DNA of 64,000 nucleotides from Candidatus Binatia bacterium (GCA_041483675.1 JBGPGE010000006.1:8978-72977), one strand, 5' to 3'; numbered from the stretch's first letter, positions 7,826 to 47,857 are shown. The notes: generated by a model from the sequence alone, not told the origin. A program made the numbers and translations.

Positions 7826-8794
7826 TTATTTGAGTTCGATCAAAGCTTCCGTGACGAACCTCGGCTCGACGAATCGTTTCAAATCCACCGCCCGCCCGCG
7901 CATCTCGGGAATGCTGTCCCAGGCGTTCTGCAGCCCCTCGATATCGGGCACCGGCTCGGAGCGCAAAAATTTATTCGTATCGACGTAGATGTTCTCGATG
8001 TCGGCCTCGGAGACTTTGTAGTATTTCCTGAGATACGGCTTCACCAGGTCCGGGCGCGCCTTCCAGCTCCGTATGCCGTCGAGGAATCCCAGCACGACCT
8101 GCTTCAATACCGCGGGCCGCTCTTTGACCAATGAATCGTGCGCGACCATGATCTGGCTCGCGAACTTGGTCTTGATGGTCGAGAGATCGAAAATCACCTG
8201 GAGGCCCGCGTTGCGGGCGAACGGCACGAAAGCCGGCGTGACGATCGCGCCGTCGACGCCACCGCTCGCCAGCGCCGCCGAGCGCGCGGCGGAGTTGCCG
8301 ATCTGCAAGATCTGCACGTCTTTGTCCGGATCCATGCCCCATTGACGGATGACGAAGCGGGTCTGGATATCGGAGAAGGCGCCGTAGCGGCTGACCGCGA
8401 TCTTCTTGCCTTTCATGTCCTTGGGGCCGGCGATTCCCGGCCGGGCGACGAACAGGTGCTGGAACTGGTCGATATTGACCATGATGATCTTCATCGGCGC
8501 GCCGGCGGCCATCGCCCTGAGCGCGTCGGTCGCCGTCGTCGTGGCTGTCGCGGCGCTGCCCGACGCCATGGTCTGCGACGTGATGACACCGCTGGTGACG
8601 TAGAGCATCGTCATGTCGAGGCCGTGTTTCTTAAAGAACCCCGCCTCGTAGGCGAACTTGAGCGCGTCGCTCTGCGAACCCGAGCCGGTATAGACGAAAT
8701 TCAGCGGAGTCAATTGGGCGCGGGCCGCCGGCGTCCAGGCAAGAAAAACGGAAGCGATCCAAAGCGTCTGCCAAAAACATTTGTTTTGCCTCAC
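7826..8794 (-). CDS. ABC transporter substrate-binding protein, NMT1/THI5 (SsuA/TauA-like) family
   Basis: 322 aa with a signal peptide. Paralog of 6816..7823, with 2-nt spacing to the downstream gene and a 4-nt overlap with the upstream dioxygenase. Confidence 0.6.
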   Translation of the reverse strand: MRQNKCFWQTLWIASVFLAWTPAARAQLTPLNFVYTGSGSQSDALKFAYEAGFFKKHGLDMTMLYVTSGVITSQTMASGSAATATTTATDALRAMAAGAPMKIIMVNIDQFQHLFVARPGIAGPKDMKGKKIAVSRYGAFSDIQTRFVIRQWGMDPDKDVQILQIGNSAARSAALASGGVDGAIVTPAFVPFARNAGLQVIFDLSTIKTKFASQIMVAHDSLVKERPAVLKQVVLGFLDGIRSWKARPDLVKPYLRKYYKVSEADIENIYVDTNKFLRSEPVPDIEGLQNAWDSIPEMRGRAVDLKRFVEPRFVTEALIELK

Positions 8795-9902: not shown

Positions 9903-9985
9903 CCGGTCGTAGAGCCCGCGCGTCCGATACCGCCGGTGGGAAAAAGCACCGACCCGTCGCGCGGGCTCGGAGAGCGGGTGGCGGC
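9903..9985 (+). repeat. 83-bp palindromic intergenic element, family A copy 2
   Basis: cggtcgtagagcccgcgcgtccgataccgccggtgggaaaaagcaccgacccgtcgcgcgggctcggagagcgggtggcggc. Same orientation as the copies at 5157 and 18823. Confidence 0.7.
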
Positions 9986-9993
9986 TTGACCCG

Positions 9994-11169
9994 TCACTTC
10001 GAGGCCCCTTGAAGCCCTACGGACGCCGAAGTCCCGGCGGAAAACTCGATTGACTCCTTGCTCAGGTTGGGCAGCACTTCCTTGGCCATCAGCTCCAGAC
10101 TCTTCTTCACCTGGCTAAGCCTCAGCCTGCCGAAAACCGGCCGCATCATGATCTTGTTCGTGCCGAGCGTCCTGCACTGATGAAGGATCTGTTCGGTGAC
10201 ATAGTCGGGATCGCCGACGATGGTGATCCCTTCGCGCTGCAACAACTCGAACGACCAGTTCTTGATTTCCATCACACCGACGTGCTCGCCTTTCTTGTAG
10301 TCCGTAGCGCGCTCGGAAAAATACTTATCGGCCACGTTGCGGCTGTATTTGGCCGGCGAGCCGCCGAACTCCTCGGCCGGGCCGACCAAGAGGTCTTTTT
10401 CCGCCTCCTCGCGCGCCTTGGCGTTGGTCTCCCCGACGTAGATGTCGCGCGAGACGATGCAGTGATCCGGGCCCGGCTGCCAGCCACAGTTATCCTTCGC
10501 GTACTTGCGATAGTATTCGAAGCTCTCGCGGATCTGATCCGTCGGCGACCACGAAGCCGCGAGATTGACGCGGTTTTTGGCCGCCCACTCGATGCTCTCG
10601 GCGCTGATCGACGGAATCCAGGTTTCGGGAATCGGTTGCTGCAGAGGGCGCGGCAGAAAAGCGACGTAATCGAGGTTCCAGTACTTGCCGTGGTGTTCGA
10701 ACGGCTCCTCGGCCTGCCAGCCTTTAGATATAATGTTCCAACCTTCTTCGAAGCGCTCGCGCGATTCGGCGGAAGGAATCTGAAAAGCCCAGAAATCCCC
10801 GCCGCGCGTCATACCGACAACCAGCCTGCCGTTCGTCAGGTTGTCCAACAAGGCAAGCTCTTCGCCCAGCCGCACCGGGTGATGCAGCGGCAGGCAGTTG
10901 CCCATGAGGCCGATCTTGATTTTTTTCGTCAGGACGGCGGCCATGGCGACGAAGAGATTCGGCGAAGGCGAAAGACCGTTGGCCGCGCGGCTGTGATGCT
11001 CCGGAAAAAAAATCCCGTCGAAGCCGTAGTCCTCGACGCCGCGCAGGAACTCGACGACCTCGTCGTAAATCTCCTTGCCCAAAAGCCGGTCGTAATCCTT
11101 TCCCGCGAGCAGGTAAGAACCGGCGATGCGCTTGGGATAACCCACGCGCATGAAAAGCCAAACCTTCAT
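9994..11169 (-). CDS. LLM-class (luciferase-like) flavin-dependent monooxygenase/oxidoreductase
   Basis: 391 aa. The FFPEHH motif and TIM-barrel LLM architecture are present. Confidence 0.65.
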   Translation of the reverse strand: MKVWLFMRVGYPKRIAGSYLLAGKDYDRLLGKEIYDEVVEFLRGVEDYGFDGIFFPEHHSRAANGLSPSPNLFVAMAAVLTKKIKIGLMGNCLPLHHPVRLGEELALLDNLTNGRLVVGMTRGGDFWAFQIPSAESRERFEEGWNIISKGWQAEEPFEHHGKYWNLDYVAFLPRPLQQPIPETWIPSISAESIEWAAKNRVNLAASWSPTDQIRESFEYYRKYAKDNCGWQPGPDHCIVSRDIYVGETNAKAREEAEKDLLVGPAEEFGGSPAKYSRNVADKYFSERATDYKKGEHVGVMEIKNWSFELLQREGITIVGDPDYVTEQILHQCRTLGTNKIMMRPVFGRLRLSQVKKSLELMAKEVLPNLSKESIEFSAGTSASVGLQGASK

Positions 11170-21516: not shown

Positions 21517-21960
21517 CTATAGAATAGAGACGCTGCCGCCCCTGGTAACCTTTGCGATGAACGGCCCGGGACGGTTCTTCAGAAGGCGCTTCATTTTTGG
21601 GAGGGCTTTCACGTAGGCCTCCGCCATTTCGCTACCTCGAAGCTGAGCGGACGCCAAGACGAATGCTCGCACGCCCGCGTTCCGTAGGGCTTGCTGTTCG
21701 GTCGCTCGATACCGGATGCGGTCGTCTTTCGTCAGGACTATCCACCCTTTTCGCCCAACTTCGATGAGCCACTCCGCATCCTTGGCGTCCGGAAGAAAAT
21801 GATCGTCATGGATTTCGACTGTCTCGCCGGCATTTCGGAGGGCCTGGGCAACCACGTTCTTGCCCAGTGACCGGTCGAGGAAGAAGATGATTGGTTCAGG
21901 CGGCTTCGAGCCAGAGCTCGCAGCGGATGGCCTCCTCGATCTCGCCCCGGCCTCGCCCAT
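21517..21960 (-). CDS. DUF5615-like (PIN-like) putative toxin partner of the DUF433 protein
   Basis: 147-aa ORF with conserved core IIFFLDRSLGKNVV...IHDDHF. The start is uncertain: the listed ATG overlaps the upstream gene by 65 nt. Confidence 0.4.
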   Translation of the reverse strand: MGEAGARSRRPSAASSGSKPPEPIIFFLDRSLGKNVVAQALRNAGETVEIHDDHFLPDAKDAEWLIEVGRKGWIVLTKDDRIRYRATEQQALRNAGVRAFVLASAQLRGSEMAEAYVKALPKMKRLLKNRPGPFIAKVTRGGSVSIL

Positions 21961-22648
21961 AATCCCCCGCTAGTTCATCAATCGACTCCCCGGCTTTGTA
22001 GCGCTCCGCTATAACCGCCGTAGGAATGCCGGTTCCTACCAGCACAGGCCGGCCAAAGGAAATCTGCGGATCGATAACCACAACCCTCGGCTCCTGGGCA
22101 TCGCGTTTTCTGGTAAAGGGAAACAGCCTTACCGCGTGGCCGGCGGGATCGTGTTCGACGCGTTTGAGGTGAGCTTGAAGCAATTTTTTGATCGCGAGCT
22201 GACCCTCTCGGGAAACGTTGATCAGCTGGCCGTATTTCTCGATGAACAGATCGAGACCGTCGGTTTCGAACCGATGCTCCGCCAGAGGATGTTCCGAGCC
22301 AAACTCTGCTTTGATGTAGTTGAGAGCTGTCCTTACTTTGGCGAGGGGGATTTCGTGAATCCGCCGGAGAGCATCGAGCACATGGACTTCGACCAGATTA
22401 ACGAACGAAAGCAGACGATGGTCCGTATCGGGGAGATCGACGATCGGTTTAAAGAATCTTCGACCGGCCTCGGTCTGATAATAACGGCCGACCGCCCAGG
22501 ATCGAAGGGTCGCGCGAGGTATGAGGAGATAGTGCGAAGCTTCCGTAACGCTGAAGGCGGGTAATTCTCTTACGTCCTGATTTTTTTCGAACTTACAGCC
22601 TCGGTTCTGCACTGAAGGGACTATGCCCCAAGGGGTAGAGATAGTCAA
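21896..22648 (-). CDS. DUF433 domain protein with long N-terminal extension
   Basis: The C-terminal 60 aa (ISFGRPVLVGTGIPTAVIAERYKAGESIDELAGDYG...) match the DUF433 antitoxin-like domain. The N-terminal 170 aa are unassigned. Confidence 0.45.
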   Translation of the reverse strand: MTISTPWGIVPSVQNRGCKFEKNQDVRELPAFSVTEASHYLLIPRATLRSWAVGRYYQTEAGRRFFKPIVDLPDTDHRLLSFVNLVEVHVLDALRRIHEIPLAKVRTALNYIKAEFGSEHPLAEHRFETDGLDLFIEKYGQLINVSREGQLAIKKLLQAHLKRVEHDPAGHAVRLFPFTRKRDAQEPRVVVIDPQISFGRPVLVGTGIPTAVIAERYKAGESIDELAGDYGRGRGEIEEAIRCELWLEAA

Positions 22649-22782
22649 GTTTGGCGGAAATCTCGGCCGTCTCGAGAAGAATCAACAAAATCCGAAACCA
22701 GCCGAAAAAAACCAGTAATTCCAGGGATGGCCCTTTCGCTTTGTTGGAGAGGGTAGGCCCTGATCGATAGCGTGTCACGGAC

Positions 22783-22800
22783 AAAAGACGGACAGCCGTC
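22783..22800 (-). terminator. weak hairpin plus T-run downstream of the HerA-like gene
   Basis: Minus-strand sequence gacggctgtccgtcttttgt immediately after the stop. Confidence 0.25.
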
Positions 22801-22806
22801 AAAGTT

Positions 22807-24264
22807 CTAGTTCATTCTTCTTCTTCCGGTACGAATAATAGCGGGGGGTCCAAGATCGCCGTATATCAGAGCCTCATGCCGACGAAATGTCGCGGCTCTT
22901 GATATTAATTCTGCGGATACGTCCAGCGTGCTTTTCGATAGCGAGAGCAAATCATCTTGGTTCTGTAACTTGAGAACGAAAAAGTTTCTGCAATTATCCA
23001 AGGCATTAGGATGAATTTTAGCGGGTCGCTGTGACACGAGGATTAAATGGAGTCCGTATTTCCGTCCTTCGCCAGAAATGCGATTGACCCATTCCAGAGT
23101 TCTCTTCTGCCACGGTTCCTCTGGTATTGCGGGAGCAAGGTTGTGAGCCTCATCAATTATGACAAAGGTCGGATTTTTTGTCTTTTCATTACGTTCCCAT
23201 AACTTTCTTAGGACCCCCTCCGCTAAGATTGCCCTATGGGAAAACTGTAATCTTCCCAGGTTATATTCGATTAACCGAGATGGGTCAGATTTTTCCAGAA
23301 GGTCAAGCGAGTCGGTCTCCTCAGACGACCAAATCGGGGCATCTTTCATTCGTTTAAAAAAATCGCGCAAAATAGTCAGACCCTTGAGTTCTTCGTCTTG
23401 CAAGAGATACCTGTAACCAGCAGGAATTCCTTCATTACGCTGAATCGCATCTCGTGTTTTCTCTTCGCATGTTGCGGGAGAGATGGGCTTATCCTTCGGC
23501 AAATTTTTACAAAAATGGTCAAAAAGCGATTCGACCTTAAAGTGATACGGTATACTCTCCAGCTGCAATAGATCAGGAGAGGAAAATCTCTGCATTTTGA
23601 TTTGGGGCAAAGGGATCAGGTCCATTGAAATACTTTTGAGCGCTTTCTGCTGCTGTCTTAAAACCTCATCCGTGATGTTTTCGCATGCGTTATCCTTTGA
23701 ATTTACATCCGTTTCGAGCCTCGCTTGGTCGAAGGTCGCAAAATCTGAATTGAGATCTAGGATAACGATTTGTGTATCCGGACAGTTTAAAAGAATCTCC
23801 TCGAGTAACAAACCGAGTAATGTTGTCTTACCAGAACCTGAGCTGCCGAGCATGCATGAATGGGTTCCTAGAAGGTTCTCCCCATTGAGAACGACTGATA
23901 CGTGGCCATCTATCCCTGAAAGCTCCCCTACATTAAGGGAGACCTTTGATTGAGTACTGAACAGCTTAGCTAACGATGCACCGGGATCTGGAATGAATAC
24001 GGTCGCACCGACCAGTTCGTAAGCAACACCCGAACTAAGGATTTTGCAATGGTATTCGTACTGCGCGTAGCGTTGTACTCCAGAGGAAGGAGACAGCTCC
24101 TTGCCGGTAAATTCTTCTATTATTGCGGGGATACGGTGATCTGTCTTTTTCGGCACAACTTCAACGTAGTTCCCTGGAATCAGTGTATGCCCCGCTGACT
24201 TTATAAAAGTAAATCGCTCGGGGCTGATTTGTTTTACGACTCTGCCAACCGCGGGTAGTGCCAT
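22807..24264 (-). CDS. HerA-like / DUF87 (FtsK-HerA superfamily) ATPase
   Basis: 485 aa with an N-terminal HAS-barrel-like region, Walker A GSSGSGKTT, Walker B/DEAH-like VIIDEAHNLAP, and the LILVSQRP motif. It lies in a low-GC (about 45-50%) island. Confidence 0.7.
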   Translation of the reverse strand: MALPAVGRVVKQISPERFTFIKSAGHTLIPGNYVEVVPKKTDHRIPAIIEEFTGKELSPSSGVQRYAQYEYHCKILSSGVAYELVGATVFIPDPGASLAKLFSTQSKVSLNVGELSGIDGHVSVVLNGENLLGTHSCMLGSSGSGKTTLLGLLLEEILLNCPDTQIVILDLNSDFATFDQARLETDVNSKDNACENITDEVLRQQQKALKSISMDLIPLPQIKMQRFSSPDLLQLESIPYHFKVESLFDHFCKNLPKDKPISPATCEEKTRDAIQRNEGIPAGYRYLLQDEELKGLTILRDFFKRMKDAPIWSSEETDSLDLLEKSDPSRLIEYNLGRLQFSHRAILAEGVLRKLWERNEKTKNPTFVIIDEAHNLAPAIPEEPWQKRTLEWVNRISGEGRKYGLHLILVSQRPAKIHPNALDNCRNFFVLKLQNQDDLLSLSKSTLDVSAELISRAATFRRHEALIYGDLGPPAIIRTGRRRMN

Positions 24265-24661
24265 TTGTCTCCCTTAGCACAACGGCAAAAGAATAACACA
24301 GTAGTTGGCTTAACGGAAAAACTTCAGTCCCAATATTTGATTTGTAATCAAGAAGTCCCCTTGAATGCTACGAAACAAAAAAGCTTTTCCCCCTCTGTCC
24401 GTGAATTGTCCGTGGGAGTCCTTGAGGACGAACGGGAGCACCGGGACAGCGAGGGGGAGCGACCCGGCGAAGATGGGGGGGGGTTAGTCCGAGGTGAGGA
24501 TTCGGGTTGCCAGGGCACCCGCGAATCGGCCAGGCGACCAGAGCATAGCGGGGCATGATCTCGTGCGTGCGCTGTGATAAAAGTTGAATGGCCACGGGAA
24601 CCCAGTGACTAAGGGACCGTGGATGGTGGTATAGAAAACCTGTGCTGAAAGGAGACCTGTC

Positions 24662-25105
24662 ATGAACCTTGAACGAGGGTTTCGGCGCATCGTATTGACT
24701 ATCTCTTTCACGGCTGCTAGCGCGGGTCTTGTAGTCACGGCCTACGATATCTACAAGTACATTGAGTACGTGTCTGGAATAAAAAAATGGGTCGCGTGCG
24801 TCGAAGAAATTCACTCGCGGACCCCTACCGAGGAAGAGTTCTGGACTAAGTTCGGTCGTAAGGGCCCTTCCGACTGCGAGCACTTCTCGACAGATAGGCC
24901 AACGCCCTTCTTCCCCGTTATGACGCACTGGACCACGACCTTCTATAGTTATGATAGTGTAGCCGGCTTCTCGATTACACTACCATCATACACCCCCACC
25001 CTGGTCCTTTTCATATGGGGCGTCCTTGTGAGTACAGGGCTTGGCGCGATCCCCTGGGGAGTGTTTTACCTAGCGCGATGGATCGTCCACGGCTTCAAGG
25101 TTTGA
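24662..25105 (+). CDS. small membrane protein (about 3 TM), hypothetical
   Basis: 147 aa, with an AGGAGA Shine-Dalgarno 6 nt upstream. Hydrophobic segments at residues 9-28 and 108-140. Low-GC codon usage matches the island. Confidence 0.45.
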   Translation: MNLERGFRRIVLTISFTAASAGLVVTAYDIYKYIEYVSGIKKWVACVEEIHSRTPTEEEFWTKFGRKGPSDCEHFSTDRPTPFFPVMTHWTTTFYSYDSVAGFSITLPSYTPTLVLFIWGVLVSTGLGAIPWGVFYLARWIVHGFKV

Positions 25106-25120
25106 AAAAGGGTGAGAACC

Positions 25121-25309
25121 ATGAGGAAAGGGTGTTATCTGACGGTTTTGCTGGCATGGGTGCCAAAGCTGAGCCACGCCCTGCGCGGCGGCCTCAAGCC
25201 GATGGTTAGGCCTTACAGTCATCTCGATACGGAAAATCCCACGCAGCCAACGGAGCTGCTCAGGGGTACGGCGTACCGGTTTGCCACTTGGTCTCCAGGT
25301 CGGCAATGA
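25121..25309 (+). CDS. small hypothetical protein with hydrophobic N-terminus
   Basis: 62 codons directly downstream of the membrane protein (MRKGCYLTVLLAWVPKLSHA...). An alternative GTG start lies at 25112. The gene overlaps the 3' end of the convergent 25260..26006 gene. Confidence 0.25.
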   Translation: MRKGCYLTVLLAWVPKLSHALRGGLKPMVRPYSHLDTENPTQPTELLRGTAYRFATWSPGRQ

Positions 25310-26006
25310 TCGCCGCCTTGTCGACGATTTCAATGCAATTGAAGGGCTTCTTGCCTGCGTCCTTGAGCGAACCACCTACCAGCCAGCACCGATCGTTGAA
25401 GATTAGATGCCGATCATGAAGAGACGGAGCACGTCTGACTCGAAGCTGATGTCCCTCAGCGGTGAACGCGGCGATGGCACGGTCGAAGTCCGGCTCCACG
25501 GAATTCTGGTACGTTCCAGTTAGCAGCATGACAGGGATTGTGAGGCTGCGGAGGCAATCAAGGGTTCCCACTCCAACGTATGGATCGACGATGAAGACTG
25601 CTCCAGTGGCAGTCTCGAGGAGTTCTCGGACCTTCGATTTCGCCGAAAATACGTTGCCTGCGGCCACCGTGATATCACTAGGCGCGGCGGTTGTTTCAAA
25701 AAACTTCTGTGCCTCGCAAATGACAGCAGTCATTTTACAATGAAACTCTTGTCGCTCCCAGGACGTGTGCGCAATACCATCGGTGTTACGGCTTTCGGCG
25801 AGATCCAGCAGGCTGTCCAGCAGCCGCCGTGAGTTTCCGTGTTCGAGCTTGGTTGTCAGTTCTCGCGCTACGGACAACCACTTTGGCTCAGAGTCGTTAA
25901 TGGTTTCGAGGTCCACATCGAACAGAGTCACCAACTCGCGAAACTCGTCGATCGTGAAGTAACCTTCGAATATGGAAACGAGTTTGAGCGCCAGTTCTGG
26001 AAACAT
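25260..26006 (-). CDS. hypothetical protein with PLD-nuclease-like C-terminal domain carrying a non-canonical HxR...D...GS motif
   Basis: 248 aa. The C-terminal region (VFIVDPYVG...LTIPVMLLTGTY...SLHDRHLIFNDRCWLVGGSLK) resembles the PLD/Nuc family strand-motif pattern (HxKx4Dx6GSxN), but with K->R and N->K substitutions. The N-terminal 75 aa are helical. Confidence 0.35.
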   Translation of the reverse strand: MFPELALKLVSIFEGYFTIDEFRELVTLFDVDLETINDSEPKWLSVARELTTKLEHGNSRRLLDSLLDLAESRNTDGIAHTSWERQEFHCKMTAVICEAQKFFETTAAPSDITVAAGNVFSAKSKVRELLETATGAVFIVDPYVGVGTLDCLRSLTIPVMLLTGTYQNSVEPDFDRAIAAFTAEGHQLRVRRAPSLHDRHLIFNDRCWLVGGSLKDAGKKPFNCIEIVDKAAIIADLETKWQTGTPYP

Positions 26007-26102
26007 AGCGAGCGACCATCAGTATCCGTATAGATGAACTTGCAACATGTCGAAGGCCTTTCTCAGGTCTCTACAGTAGCCCTCCACTACGAAACGATAA
26101 TG

Positions 26103-26175
26103 ACCGTTCAAGTCGACCGCATGTACGCATTCTCCATTGCTCCAATGTCGAATGCTCTAATGCTCTCAAATTTCT
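26103..26175 (+). repeat. imperfect direct repeat (copy 1) related to the sequence flanking the 3' side of tRNA-Ala
   Basis: gaccgcatgtacgcattctccattgctccaatgtcgaatgctctaatgctctcaaatttctgcatggcaaa, about 75% identical with indels to 27590..27665. Confidence 0.4.
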
Positions 26176-26344
26176 GCATGGCAAATTACGATTGTGAAAA
26201 AGCTGGAGCATCAGCGCAGTAGAACATCTGACCGCATTGTCGCATCCGCCCAAGGTTCCGTTGTGACCATGTTCCGTCCTTTGATGACCCGGGACCGTTC
26301 ATGCCAGGGGGCTTCGAGGATTTTGCCGTCAACGGCTCGCCGCG

Positions 26345-27313
26345 CTACCCGAGCGCCCGCGAGTACTTCTCGCGGAGTTTTCCAAAGCGGCGGCCGCATT
26401 CTCGCGACGCCTCGGCGAAGTCGGGTGGCATGACGTTGTACGGCGGCCGGATGGGACCGGTCTTGCAGTAACCGGACGCGGTCATCAGGATCTTTTCCAT
26501 CTGAATGTTGTAGGACGCGAAAACTTCCTGCGAGCCGGTGATGATGTGATGCGGTTCGAGAGCCCATGCGATATCCTCGGCGACCGCCTTGGCCCGCTCA
26601 GCGTCCCGCGCCGCCAGCGCCTGCATGAGCGCGAGGCCGGGTTGCGGCCCCACCGCGGGAATCCAACATGTCGTAGCGGTCTCAGGGGATAGCTGAGCGA
26701 ATTCATAAGCGAGACCGACGGGAGGGACGAAGTTTACGCGCCCTTTGGTCGCAGCCACCGCTTCGCGCAGAATTCCCTTGCTGGCAAATTTGGCGGACAT
26801 GACCGTCGGCGCTCTCTCGACAACGATTTTCCAGAAGTCGAGATCGAACCCGTAACGAAAGGCGCGCGGGTTGGCATAGACCATAACGGGAAAATCCGGG
26901 AACGTTTCGGAAACGGAAGCGTAGAATTGCACCGCCATATCGCGCGTGGCCGGCTGCCACATTGGAATTCCCAAGAGGGTGCCGGTGGCGCCGCGCTCCT
27001 TTACAAACCGGATGCGGCGCGCAATCTCATGGCCCCCTAACGCCGTCGTTCCGATAAACGTGGGGATGCGGCCGCGGACCGTCTTGAGCAGACAATCCAC
27101 GTACGCCTCGTAGTCGCCGTGCGAAACGGTCGCGCATTCTCCCATGGTTCCGAGCGCCATGATGCCGGTCGCGCCGTCGCGGACGAGACTCTCGGCGAGA
27201 CGGGCGGTTTCATCCAGATCCACCGTATCGACCGCATCCAGTCGCTCGGCTCCGTCCCTGGCCGGCGTCGGCATGATCGCTAACGCACCGCGCAGATCGT
27301 TGGCGCTGATCAT
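26345..27313 (-). CDS. dihydrodipicolinate synthase / N-acetylneuraminate lyase (DapA) family protein
   Basis: 322 aa with the GTMGE motif (GxxGE of DHDPS-family class I aldolases). A strong GGGAGGAG Shine-Dalgarno is present. Confidence 0.65.
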   Translation of the reverse strand: MISANDLRGALAIMPTPARDGAERLDAVDTVDLDETARLAESLVRDGATGIMALGTMGECATVSHGDYEAYVDCLLKTVRGRIPTFIGTTALGGHEIARRIRFVKERGATGTLLGIPMWQPATRDMAVQFYASVSETFPDFPVMVYANPRAFRYGFDLDFWKIVVERAPTVMSAKFASKGILREAVAATKGRVNFVPPVGLAYEFAQLSPETATTCWIPAVGPQPGLALMQALAARDAERAKAVAEDIAWALEPHHIITGSQEVFASYNIQMEKILMTASGYCKTGPIRPPYNVMPPDFAEASRECGRRFGKLREKYSRALG

Positions 27314-27589
27314 ATTCTCCTCCCTTGAACCGAAGTCCGGACGAAACGACCGGGCAATTACGCGGTTTCCCTAACACGTCCCGCCGCGTGCGTCAATCAA
27401 CTTATATCGAACACGGGCTTTGAATCCCCGTGTTCGACCAAAGGGGAGAGATGCCGCTTCTCCCCTTTGGAAACCCCATCGGTTTTGTGCCCGCCTCAAG
27501 TGGCGGGGTTTACATTCAATAGAAAAAATTTCCCGCAAGCACGTTCGCCGTCAAATCGATTCGCTGAAAGGGGGAGAAAAACGGGAGCA

Positions 27590-27665
27590 TTGGAACAATA
27601 GAGCAGTAGACCGCATTCTCGCATCTGGCCAATGTTCCATTGTCCAATGCTCTAAATTTTTGCGA
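27590..27665 (+). repeat. imperfect direct repeat (copy 2), immediately 3' of tRNA-Ala
   Basis: gaccgcattctcgcatctggccaatgttccattgtccaatgctctaaatttttgcgaagcaaa. It partly overlaps the tRNA terminator hairpin. Confidence 0.4.
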
Positions 27666-27675: not shown

Positions 27676-27751
<76 letters not shown>

Positions 27752-47026: not shown

Positions 47027-47266
47027 ATGAAACCCGTTACGATAGATCTTCCGCCTGAATTCCTGGAAGTCCTCGGATCAGAGGAAGAGGCTAAGCGAGA
47101 AGCCAAAGTCGCAGTGATCCTAGATCTCGTCCGCCGAGGAAAAATCTCTAGGGCAAAGGCGGCGGAGCTCTTGCAGGTATCGTTGTGGGACTTGCCGGCT
47201 CTACTGGCTCAATACCGCATCCCTTGGTTTGACTACTCCCCGGAGGACGTCAAGCAACACTCTTAG
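47027..47266 (+). CDS. UPF0175-family antitoxin
   Basis: 79 aa (LPPEFLEVLGSEEEAKREAKVAVILDLVRRGKISRAKAAELLQVS...). The GC content (about 52%) is lower than the flanks. Confidence 0.55.
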   Translation: MKPVTIDLPPEFLEVLGSEEEAKREAKVAVILDLVRRGKISRAKAAELLQVSLWDLPALLAQYRIPWFDYSPEDVKQHS

Positions 47267-47485: not shown

Positions 47486-47857
47486 GTGTACACCATCGAT
47501 TCGAACATCCTCATCTACCACCTTCAGGGAGATAAAAACGTTGGCGACCAATTGGAGTTGTGGCTACTGGGAGGAGAGCGACTTTTCATCTCCTCAGTCA
47601 CACGTTTGGAGCTCCTTGCCGCGCCGGCGCTAAGGACCGATGAAGAACAAAGAATCAAGGAGTTGCTGTCTTTCTTCGTTCTGATGCCGGTGGATTTACA
47701 GATCGCGGATGCCGCTGCAAAGTTTAAGCGGACCTACCGACTACCCATCGGAGACAGTATTATTGCGGCAACGGCTTTTTTAACTGCTTCCCCGCTCGTC
47801 ACAAGGAACCTTCGTGATTTTCGCCGAATCAAAGAGATACGAGTGCAGCCACTGTGA
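47486..47857 (+). CDS. vapC: PIN-domain toxin VapC
   Basis: 123 aa with a GTG start. The acidic PIN motifs are present (IDSNILIY...D...E...D...N). Confidence 0.6.
   Translation: MYTIDSNILIYHLQGDKNVGDQLELWLLGGERLFISSVTRLELLAAPALRTDEEQRIKELLSFFVLMPVDLQIADAAAKFKRTYRLPIGDSIIAATAFLTASPLVTRNLRDFRRIKEIRVQPL

Follow-up and report, generated by a model that had tools for sequence, protein, structure and literature searches.

Two kinds stand out among the described systems closest to the locus considered here. The first comprises the anti-phage SIR2-HerA (Nezha) and DUF4297-HerA systems together with NurA-HerA, in which the HerA protein has an N-terminal beta-barrel, a RecA-like core, Walker A and Walker B motifs and an SQRP motif, and a HerA-type scaffold normally requires an effector partner. 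The second comprises the RhuM family and the PADLOC candidate PDC-S05, single-gene units found in defense or mobile contexts. RhuM-like proteins were earlier proposed to be toxin domains in restriction-modification neighborhoods (PMC3710099), and a PDC-S05 representative, in which its authors describe a RhuM domain, lowered the plating of T7 and T5 ~1000-fold and that of T4 ~10-fold in E. coli (bioRxiv 10.1101/2024.09.26.614923). Here we analyze a 64,000-nucleotide (nt) stretch of DNA from Candidatus Binatia bacterium (GCA_041483675.1 JBGPGE010000006.1:8978-72977), which as a whole we call the window. A segment of low guanine-plus-cytosine (GC) content within it, at 22649-26340, encodes a HerA-family ATPase of 485 amino acids (aa) and a 248-aa protein with a phospholipase D (PLD)-like C-terminal domain. 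A preliminary description of this DNA, made from the sequence alone, had read these genes as one novel HerA-associated nuclease system. Our results suggest that the stretch from about 21.5 to 26.3 kb is probably a mosaic, gained by horizontal transfer, of small independent cassettes of the defense-island type, and not one multi-gene system.

The 485-aa open reading frame (ORF; 22807..24264, minus strand) is a true HerA by its motifs, its structural model and its fold. It matches Pfam DUF87 (PF01935) with 49.6 bits against a cut-off of 23.2, its best PADLOC match is the HerA model (3.8e-36) and its best NCBIfam match is HerA_antiphage (95.2 bits). In an alignment of 16 clade members that are 33-69% identical, Walker A (GSSGSGKT), Walker B (IIDEAH) and SQRP are invariant, the invariant residues being G140, S142, G143, G145 and K146, then D371, E372, A373 and H374, and finally S411, Q412, R413 and P414. 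In the AlphaFold2 (AF2) model (predicted local distance difference test score, pLDDT, 88.6; predicted template modeling score, pTM, 0.89) residues 5-90 are wholly beta-strand and make up an N-terminal barrel; the HAS-barrel family was not among the Pfam matches of the ORF. All of the 50 best Foldseek matches of the model in the PDB are HerA, with query TM-scores of 0.59-0.72, and they include DUF4297-HerA, NurA-HerA, Sulfolobus and Deinococcus HerA, and SIR2-HerA. Anti-phage HerA and NurA-HerA chains are the best PDB matches in both sequence and structure. The solved chains matched by sequence are anti-phage and archaeal HerA proteins of 500-696 aa, all longer than the protein of the window. 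A HerA/DUF87 ATPase with a barrel, Walker A/B and QRP motifs, and short for its family, had already been proposed, and these results bear the proposal out. They also agree with its statement that Sir2, DUF4297 and NurA partners are absent, as the neighboring ORFs contain no such domain. Unlike SIR2-HerA, DUF4297-HerA and NurA-HerA, the HerA of the window has neither one of these partner genes nor any other conserved partner, and its clade relatives carry GNAT and AAA_17 genes, which those systems do not. A placement among the conjugative VirB4/TraC ATPases, named beforehand as a possible refutation, finds no support: the corresponding models score 17-19 bits against cut-offs of 325-643, and no type IV secretion system genes occur among the window ORFs. 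The protein would form a hexameric, ATP-driven, DNA-translocating scaffold. Lacking a partner, it would be either a stranded remnant or dependent on a factor encoded elsewhere.

Of two HerA_antiphage equivalog models of NCBIfam, one gives 95.2 bits (cut-off 800) and the other 79.9 bits (cut-off 850); the repair-HerA models give 61 bits (cut-off 970) and 56 bits (cut-off 800). As the ORF lies so far below every NCBIfam HerA equivalog cut-off, it belongs to a separate, uncharacterized clade, which counts at least 482 proteins. These scores also bear on the idea that the protein has a housekeeping role in DNA-end resection, as a helicase like that of NurA-HerA, the island then being a core locus for repair. 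The recN gene lies 3.5 kb from HerA, and NurA-HerA and archaeal HerA structures match the model as well as anti-phage HerA does. However, besides the low repair-model scores there is no NurA-like gene, the GC content is strongly atypical, and a tRNA gene and an unrelated gene of the aldolase family lie between HerA and recN. In addition, the relatives of this HerA occur in mobile and defense contexts and not in repair operons, and the segment is not a conserved core locus, the other finding named in advance as one that would speak against an acquired island. We consider a repair role extremely improbable.

The question of whether the genes of the segment form one system was addressed by a linkage test. 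Clade relatives of the HerA (33-69% identical) were fetched from 9 distinct places, more distant HerA relatives (~25-43% identity) from 79 further metagenomic loci, and relatives of the 248-aa protein (40-86% identical) from 16 distinct places with up to 10 kb on each side; tblastn was then run over the 119 fetched loci, with the contigs of the window itself excluded from the counts. A HerA relative is present in 90 of these loci and a relative of the 248-aa protein in 20, and not a single locus has both. When the neighbors at 67 HerA loci and at 16 loci with members of the 248-aa family were clustered by BLASTP, no recurrent partner emerged beyond near-identical contigs and the GNAT/AAA_17 pairs described below. 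The arrangement of the genes points the same way. The HerA and 248-aa genes are ~1 kb apart, and the 147-aa gene that lies between them is convergent, so that they cannot belong to one operon and are transcribed as separate units.

Composition adds to this. In a scan of the window the lowest GC content of any 1-kb interval is 0.449, at 23001-24000, and 22649-26340 as a whole has 50.3%, as compared with a mean of 60.5% (standard deviation 2.6%) for intervals outside the segment, none of which falls below 0.531. The drop to 45-55% spans about 22.4-26.2 kb and the flanks have ~60-63%. Hence the fall described before, from about 65% to 45-52%, is real, although its starting value was set too high. 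The low-GC patch extends to the toxin-antitoxin-like pair, covering ~21.5-26.3 kb, and is compositionally uneven. HerA has the lowest GC content of the segment genes (45.7%); the 248-aa gene has 54.2% and the DUF433-PIN_10 pair 56-60%. GC at third codon positions is 0.46 in HerA, 0.62 in the 248-aa gene, 0.63 in the 147-aa membrane gene and 0.61-0.68 in the toxin-antitoxin-like pair, and reaches 0.75-0.81 in the flanking aldolase, DHDPS-family and recN genes. Such differences from gene to gene argue for separate origins. The ORF positions first reported agree with our ORF scan, and the independent JGI and Logan calls of identical contigs recover the same genes, namely the DHDPS-family gene, the 248-aa gene, the 147-aa gene on the other strand, the 485-aa gene, and those for HTH_66-DUF433 and PIN_10.

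These data leave little room for the system originally envisaged, in which the HerA, the 248-aa PLD-like protein and the small membrane protein would constitute one new HerA-nuclease defense system, with HerA loading or activating a PLD-fold effector as it does Sir2 and DUF4297. The attraction of this idea is evident: a single low-GC stretch holds all the genes in no more than 3.7 kb, HerA is established as a scaffold that activates defense effectors, its best structural matches here include the solved complexes of SIR2-HerA and DUF4297-HerA, and PLD-fold nucleases serve restriction in, for example, SauUSI, BfiI and NgoAVII. However, the 90 HerA loci and the 20 loci of the 248-aa family have no member in common, the two genes have ~1 kb and a convergent gene between them and differ in GC content (45.7% vs 54.2%), and the membrane gene is found in none of the related loci. 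Moreover, the boundaries are independent and cassette-like; the cassette with the 248-aa gene has sharp homology ends of its own and, in its closest relatives, a different upstream partner that is now truncated in the window. The claim of a single HerA-associated nuclease system therefore does not hold up, and we regard it as very unlikely. The mosaic that we favor would instead have four parts: a self-contained DUF433-PIN_10 pair; a solitary HerA gene with its own ribosome-binding site and terminator-like hairpin, bracketed by an inverted TGTCCG-N5-TGTCCG motif; a gene for a protein with two transmembrane (TM) helices on the opposite strand; and a 0.95-kb cassette with the 248-aa gene, the upstream neighbor of which has been truncated.

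The 248-aa protein (25260..26006, minus strand) consists, according to its alignment, model and Foldseek matches, of a helical N-terminal domain and a single C-terminal domain of PLD fold. It has no Pfam match and its family has no Pfam model. In the model (pLDDT 90.6), residues 3-106 form six helices, after which comes an alpha/beta domain whose predicted fold is that of PLD. Among 25 family sequences that are 47-86% identical to the window protein, 42 alignment columns are invariant, including H197, D198, R199, H200, N204, G211, S213, K215, D216, G218 and K220, and the ORF of the window, which has a ribosome-binding site, keeps all 42. The PLD-nuclease-like C-terminal motif noted in the preliminary description is real in the sense that the modeled domain has the PLD fold and the variant motif H197-x-R199-x4-N204-x6-G211-x-S213-x-K215-D216 is invariant in the 25 sequences. 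The canonical HxK-x4-D-x6-GSxN of Nuc, NucT, BfiI, Zucchini and the N-terminal domain of SauUSI is not present; the family has HxR-x4-N-x6-GxSxKD in its place, so that catalysis is putative.

Two groups of proteins are closest in sequence and structure. PADLOC models of PDC-S05 match residues 92-234 (PDLC04869, 2.8e-19; PDLC04879, 9.6e-17), and the C-terminal domain is similar to the C-terminal half of Bacteroides RhuM (BLASTP 6e-12, 29% identity) and also matches VPA1262-type proteins. In plasmid and phage collections the 248-aa protein likewise yields matches to its C-terminal domain only, in RhuM, ORF6N and VPA1262 proteins and in a few haloviruses. With RhuM/PDC-S05 it shares a homologous C-terminal domain of ~140 residues with the motif HDR-x-L-I...G-x-SLKD-x-GKK, and in both cases the gene is a single-gene unit in a defense or mobile context. 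The N-terminal parts differ. RhuM has the RhuM domain PF13310, at residues 62-143 in a genuine RhuM protein from Bacteroides, and most PDC-S05 models match the N-terminal half of that protein; the 248-aa protein has an unrelated helical domain instead, and PF13310 has no match in it or in the 25 family members. RhuM also has Asp where the family has the invariant Asn204. The second group is eukaryotic. The top Foldseek match of the model is full-length MITD1 (E 1.8e-6), which also has the highest sequence identity (21-23%) among the first 30 structural matches. Both proteins pair a helical N-terminal domain with a single PLD-fold C-terminal domain, and HDR-x3-FN-x2-W is common to both. Pfam MIT_C gives weak matches in 6 of the 25 family members (best E 0.015) and no significant match in the protein of the window. 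The N-terminus of MITD1 is the MIT three-helix bundle, in contrast to the six helices of the 248-aa protein, which has no Pfam MIT match. MITD1 binds membranes and ESCRT-III; nothing points to such a role for the 248-aa protein.

By analogy with the report on a RhuM/PDC-S05 protein, the 248-aa protein would act alone. A dimer would bring two PLD-fold domains together in a single phosphate-binding or phosphodiesterase site, as known from Nuc, BfiI and Zucchini, with the invariant His-Arg-Asn-Ser-Lys as the proposed site residues, and the N-terminal helical domain (residues 1-106) would gate this site or target it.

The surroundings of the 248-aa gene support its standing as a separate cassette. 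DNA homology of 86-87% to locus L006, on a metagenome-assembled genome (MAG) labeled Pyrinomonadaceae, and to locus L009, on one labeled Binatia, runs from 25209 to 26105/26117 with sharp ends; L006 additionally matches 25162-25212. Such identity across MAGs labeled as different lineages suggests the recent transfer of a unit of ~0.95 kb. In both loci an ORF of 160-188 aa, with no Pfam or PADLOC match, lies 8-13 nt upstream of the 248-aa homolog. In the window a 3' remnant of this gene is found at 26019..26117 on the minus strand; its ~30 codons end in ...GHYRFVVEGYCRDLRKAFDMLQVHLYGY before the stop, and the translation matches the C-termini of the L006 and L009 ORFs. Since only the last ~30 codons are kept, the cassette was truncated on arrival or later. 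No such ORF stands beside the more distant relatives of the 248-aa protein.

Known or probable defense genes occur near several of these relatives. On the Binatia MAG a Lit protease, the 160-aa ORF and the 86%-identical 248-aa homolog directly downstream lie in this order on one strand (L009:6196-8397), the Lit protein matching Peptidase_U49 and the PADLOC model Lit (1.4e-113). On a Nitrospira contig (L003:8001-13249) a 56%-identical homolog precedes the genes for a TIR protein (PDC-S35, 1.8e-56), an SRA-HNH protein and a patatin, an arrangement that looks like a compact defense island. Other members adjoin an AriA/OLD-like ATPase (L011) or transposases (L010 and L012). Neighbors of the clade relatives of the HerA include BrxL and integrases (L021), an integrase (L027), and SIR2-TIR with nSTAND1 (L115). 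The defense-island flavor attributed to the segment at the outset therefore has support, with Lit, TIR/PDC-S35, SRA-HNH, patatin, the OLD/AriA-like ATPase, BrxL, SIR2-TIR with nSTAND1, integrases and transposases all found near relatives of its genes.

The nine distinct places that hold clade relatives of the HerA show a partial pattern of their own. In 4 of the 9 an AAA_17 P-loop protein is encoded after HerA, in 3 of these 4 with a GNAT acetyltransferase between them. The gene order HerA, GNAT (~290-370 aa), kinase-like AAA_17 (~190-240 aa) is seen at L021:7001-10107, L027:7001-9897 and L114:2209-5508, and at L115:6001-8009 AAA_17 directly follows HerA, beside the SIR2-TIR and nSTAND1 genes. 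The GNAT and AAA_17 proteins of these loci match no PADLOC v2 model, and both genes are absent from the window. HerA-GNAT-AAA_17 may thus be a candidate undescribed HerA-based module, one that the window lacks. The genes 3' of HerA vary within the clade and encode GNAT, AAA_17 or KaiC-like proteins. In plasmid and phage collections the only HerA matches are distant (26-30% identical) and lie on plasmids. A 97-aa ORF upstream of a 69%-identical HerA (L023-25) was considered as a partner and set aside, as it has no counterpart in the window.

If the clade has such partners, the HerA of the window could be a stranded, functionless remnant of a HerA-GNAT-AAA_17 module whose partners were lost on transfer, with the other genes as decaying cargo. 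The partners seen in 4 of the 9 places are indeed missing here, truncation is demonstrable for the gene that precedes the 248-aa ORF, and the call of the 59%-identical HerA of L026 covers just 352 aa, with codons that resemble a HerA N-terminus before its start, which suggests a frameshift. However, the ORF of the window is full length with every clade-invariant residue intact, the 248-aa ORF keeps all of its family-invariant residues, and both genes have ribosome-binding sites, that of HerA being a GGGAG immediately 5' of its ATG. Decay of this kind is, in our view, improbable.

On the other side of HerA lies the toxin-antitoxin-like pair. A 250-aa gene starting at TTG (238 aa in the JGI call; 21896..22648, minus strand) encodes an antitoxin-like protein with Pfam matches to DUF433 (2.3e-11) and HTH_66 (1.9e-9), and an overlapping 147-aa gene (21517..21960, minus strand) encodes a toxin-like protein with PIN_10, a PIN-like domain of the DUF5615 type (E 1.9e-22). 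A toxin-antitoxin-like pair at this boundary had been proposed, and it is found there. The two proteins are 47-52% (DUF433) and 39-50% (PIN_10) identical to those of a two-gene pair on plasmids of the cyanobacteria Geminocystis and Leptolyngbya, and no HerA is near the pair on either plasmid. The pair, which is conserved on unrelated replicons, shares with known DUF433/PIN-like (DUF5615, PIN_10) modules the two domains, their order and the overlapping or adjacent placement of the genes. The DUF433 protein of the window differs from these in being a long form with an N-terminal HTH_66, and the toxin-antitoxin role is predicted. Judged by sequence, DUF433-PIN_10 is an autonomous module of the toxin-antitoxin type.

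The position of the pair raises the possibility that HerA and DUF433-PIN_10 make up a three-gene module, with HerA as the core and the PIN-like RNase as the locus-specific effector. The three genes are on the same strand, only 158 nt separate HerA from DUF433, and the variable genes 3' of HerA in the clade form the pattern expected of swappable effectors. Copies of the bipartite motif TGTCCG-N5-TGTCCG lie in the HerA-DUF433 spacer and upstream of HerA, and might conceivably serve the DUF433 protein, which bears an HTH, as a shared operator. On the contrary side, a terminator-like hairpin with a T-run (22787-22800) starts 7 nt past the HerA stop, the GC content of HerA (45.7%) is far from the 56-60% of the pair, DUF433 or PIN_10 is found in none of the 90 HerA loci, and the pair is self-contained without HerA on the two cyanobacterial plasmids. 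A joint module is in our estimation unlikely, and we retain the mosaic of independent cassettes as the better account.

The bipartite motif itself occurs exactly twice in the 64 kb, in inverted orientation around HerA. Copy 1 (22778..22794, minus strand; exact) lies 13 nt past the HerA stop and overlaps the hairpin, and copy 2 (24396..24412, plus strand; exact), inverted with respect to copy 1, lies ~130 nt upstream of the HerA start. Across the ~0.97 Mb of the window and the fetched loci, with ~0.1 copies expected by chance, further exact copies are found only in L026, the locus with the 59%-identical HerA. They are at positions 8085, 9935 and 10115, one of them 26 nt past the HerA stop and the further copies in downstream intergenic spacers, and the motif heads a repeat of ~90 nt at 8083-8170 and 9933-10020. 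A 19-nt string at copy 2, CTGTCCGTGAATTGTCCGT, is identical in L026. The motif may be an operator or a cassette end. We rejected an integron/attC reading, as 1.6 kb lies between the two copies and the region contains nothing else that resembles an attC site.

Between HerA and the 248-aa gene, the ORF at 24662..25105 (plus strand, convergent with the 248-aa gene) is a real gene encoding a 147-aa protein with two predicted TM helices, at residues ~9-28 and 112-134. It has a GGAG ribosome-binding site and is called by both JGI and Logan, and a search of 1.84 billion representative proteins gave 55 relatives. The ends of the family are conserved (N-terminus MNLERGFRR..., C-terminus ...PWGVFYLVRWIVQGF), with a helix at each and a variable middle. 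The protein has no Pfam, NCBIfam or PADLOC match, and the gene is present in none of the fetched loci with HerA or 248-aa relatives; neither it nor the toxin-antitoxin pair is linked to the HerA or the 248-aa gene in those loci. A pair of small membrane ORFs had been suggested here, of which this gene is one; the other (25112-25309), which lacks a TM segment and is not called as a gene, was dismissed. Also discarded was a 186-aa ORF (24368-24928, minus strand) that overlaps the membrane gene, as it has no relative in the other fetched loci, no gene call and a weaker codon-position GC pattern.

The other boundary had been placed at a tRNA-proximal repeat. A tRNA-Ala gene (GGC; 27676..27751, minus strand) was identified by ARAGORN and Rfam (67 bits), and Rfam at a permissive threshold found nothing but this tRNA between 21 and 28 kb. 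A repeat does lie near it: copy B (27577..27643), 33 nt from the 3' end of the tRNA, folds into a long hairpin on the minus strand (z = -4.0), and no stable fold (z = -0.1) was obtained for the degenerate copy A (26198..26264), which lies on the island side of the DHDPS-family gene. The copies are direct, ~70-130 nt long and 76% identical, and are the only two in the 64 kb. However, they bracket the DHDPS-family gene (26345-27313, minus strand), which has host-like GC, and not the low-GC island, so that the repeat near the tRNA is confirmed and its role as a boundary of the island is not. The pair may be an att-like duplication or a repeated terminator element. The segment does deviate compositionally from its host in the manner of a tRNA-associated island. 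Very many homologs of the DHDPS-family gene exist at 78-95% identity, some of them named trans-o-hydroxybenzylidenepyruvate hydratase-aldolase by JGI.

Several points weigh against the reading of the segment as an acquired mosaic of independent cassettes, or against the defense roles attached to its parts. Neither the ORFs compared with Pfam nor the repeat search yielded an integrase, a transposase or an island-flanking direct repeat in the segment. An empty site was not recovered, and DHDPS homologs that are 81-85% identical lie in non-syntenic neighborhoods of aromatic catabolism; as these neighborhoods differ, that flank is itself not syntenic among relatives. Many of the contigs behind the zero co-occurrence are short, and a partner encoded at a distance of more than a few kb could have escaped notice. 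Variation in the genes 3' of HerA could mean that HerA is a constant core with swappable effectors, the PIN_10 pair perhaps being the effector here. As for the 248-aa protein, its kinship with PDC-S05 is confined to the C-terminal domain and the protein tested was defined by its RhuM domain, which makes a defense role an extrapolation by analogy. The changes from Lys to Arg and from Asp to Asn may likewise mean that its PLD-fold domain binds a ligand and does not catalyze, as in MITD1, FAM83 and TrmB.

Elsewhere in the window we noted a second, milder GC dip (0.53 at 46.75-47.75 kb). In it, a 79-aa ORF (47027-47266, plus strand) is followed by a 123-aa ORF (47486-47857, plus strand), which by eye resembles a PIN protein of the VapC type; the two might form a further toxin-antitoxin pair.

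Taken together, nearness inside a low-GC patch is no evidence of a system, and a simple co-occurrence test was enough to remove the link between HerA and the nuclease-like protein. The components of the segment are likely to be uncharacterized families of known kinds, with no new multi-gene system among them. It is also conceivable, with rather low probability, that two uncharacterized defense-type families met here by chance and that each represents new biology. In that case the HerA clade could be a new HerA-GNAT-AAA_17 system, combining an acetyltransferase with a kinase-like protein, of which the window holds a partner-less copy marked by the conserved TGTCCG-N5-TGTCCG, and the 248-aa family, with at least 272 members, could act as a new anti-phage effector on its own and be related, as a prokaryotic family, to the eukaryotic MIT_C domain. 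Two leads follow from this work. One is the HerA clade with its GNAT and AAA_17 partners, which match no PADLOC model; the other is a widespread single-gene family of PLD variants that is kin, at the level of domains, to RhuM/PDC-S05 and probably to eukaryotic MITD1.

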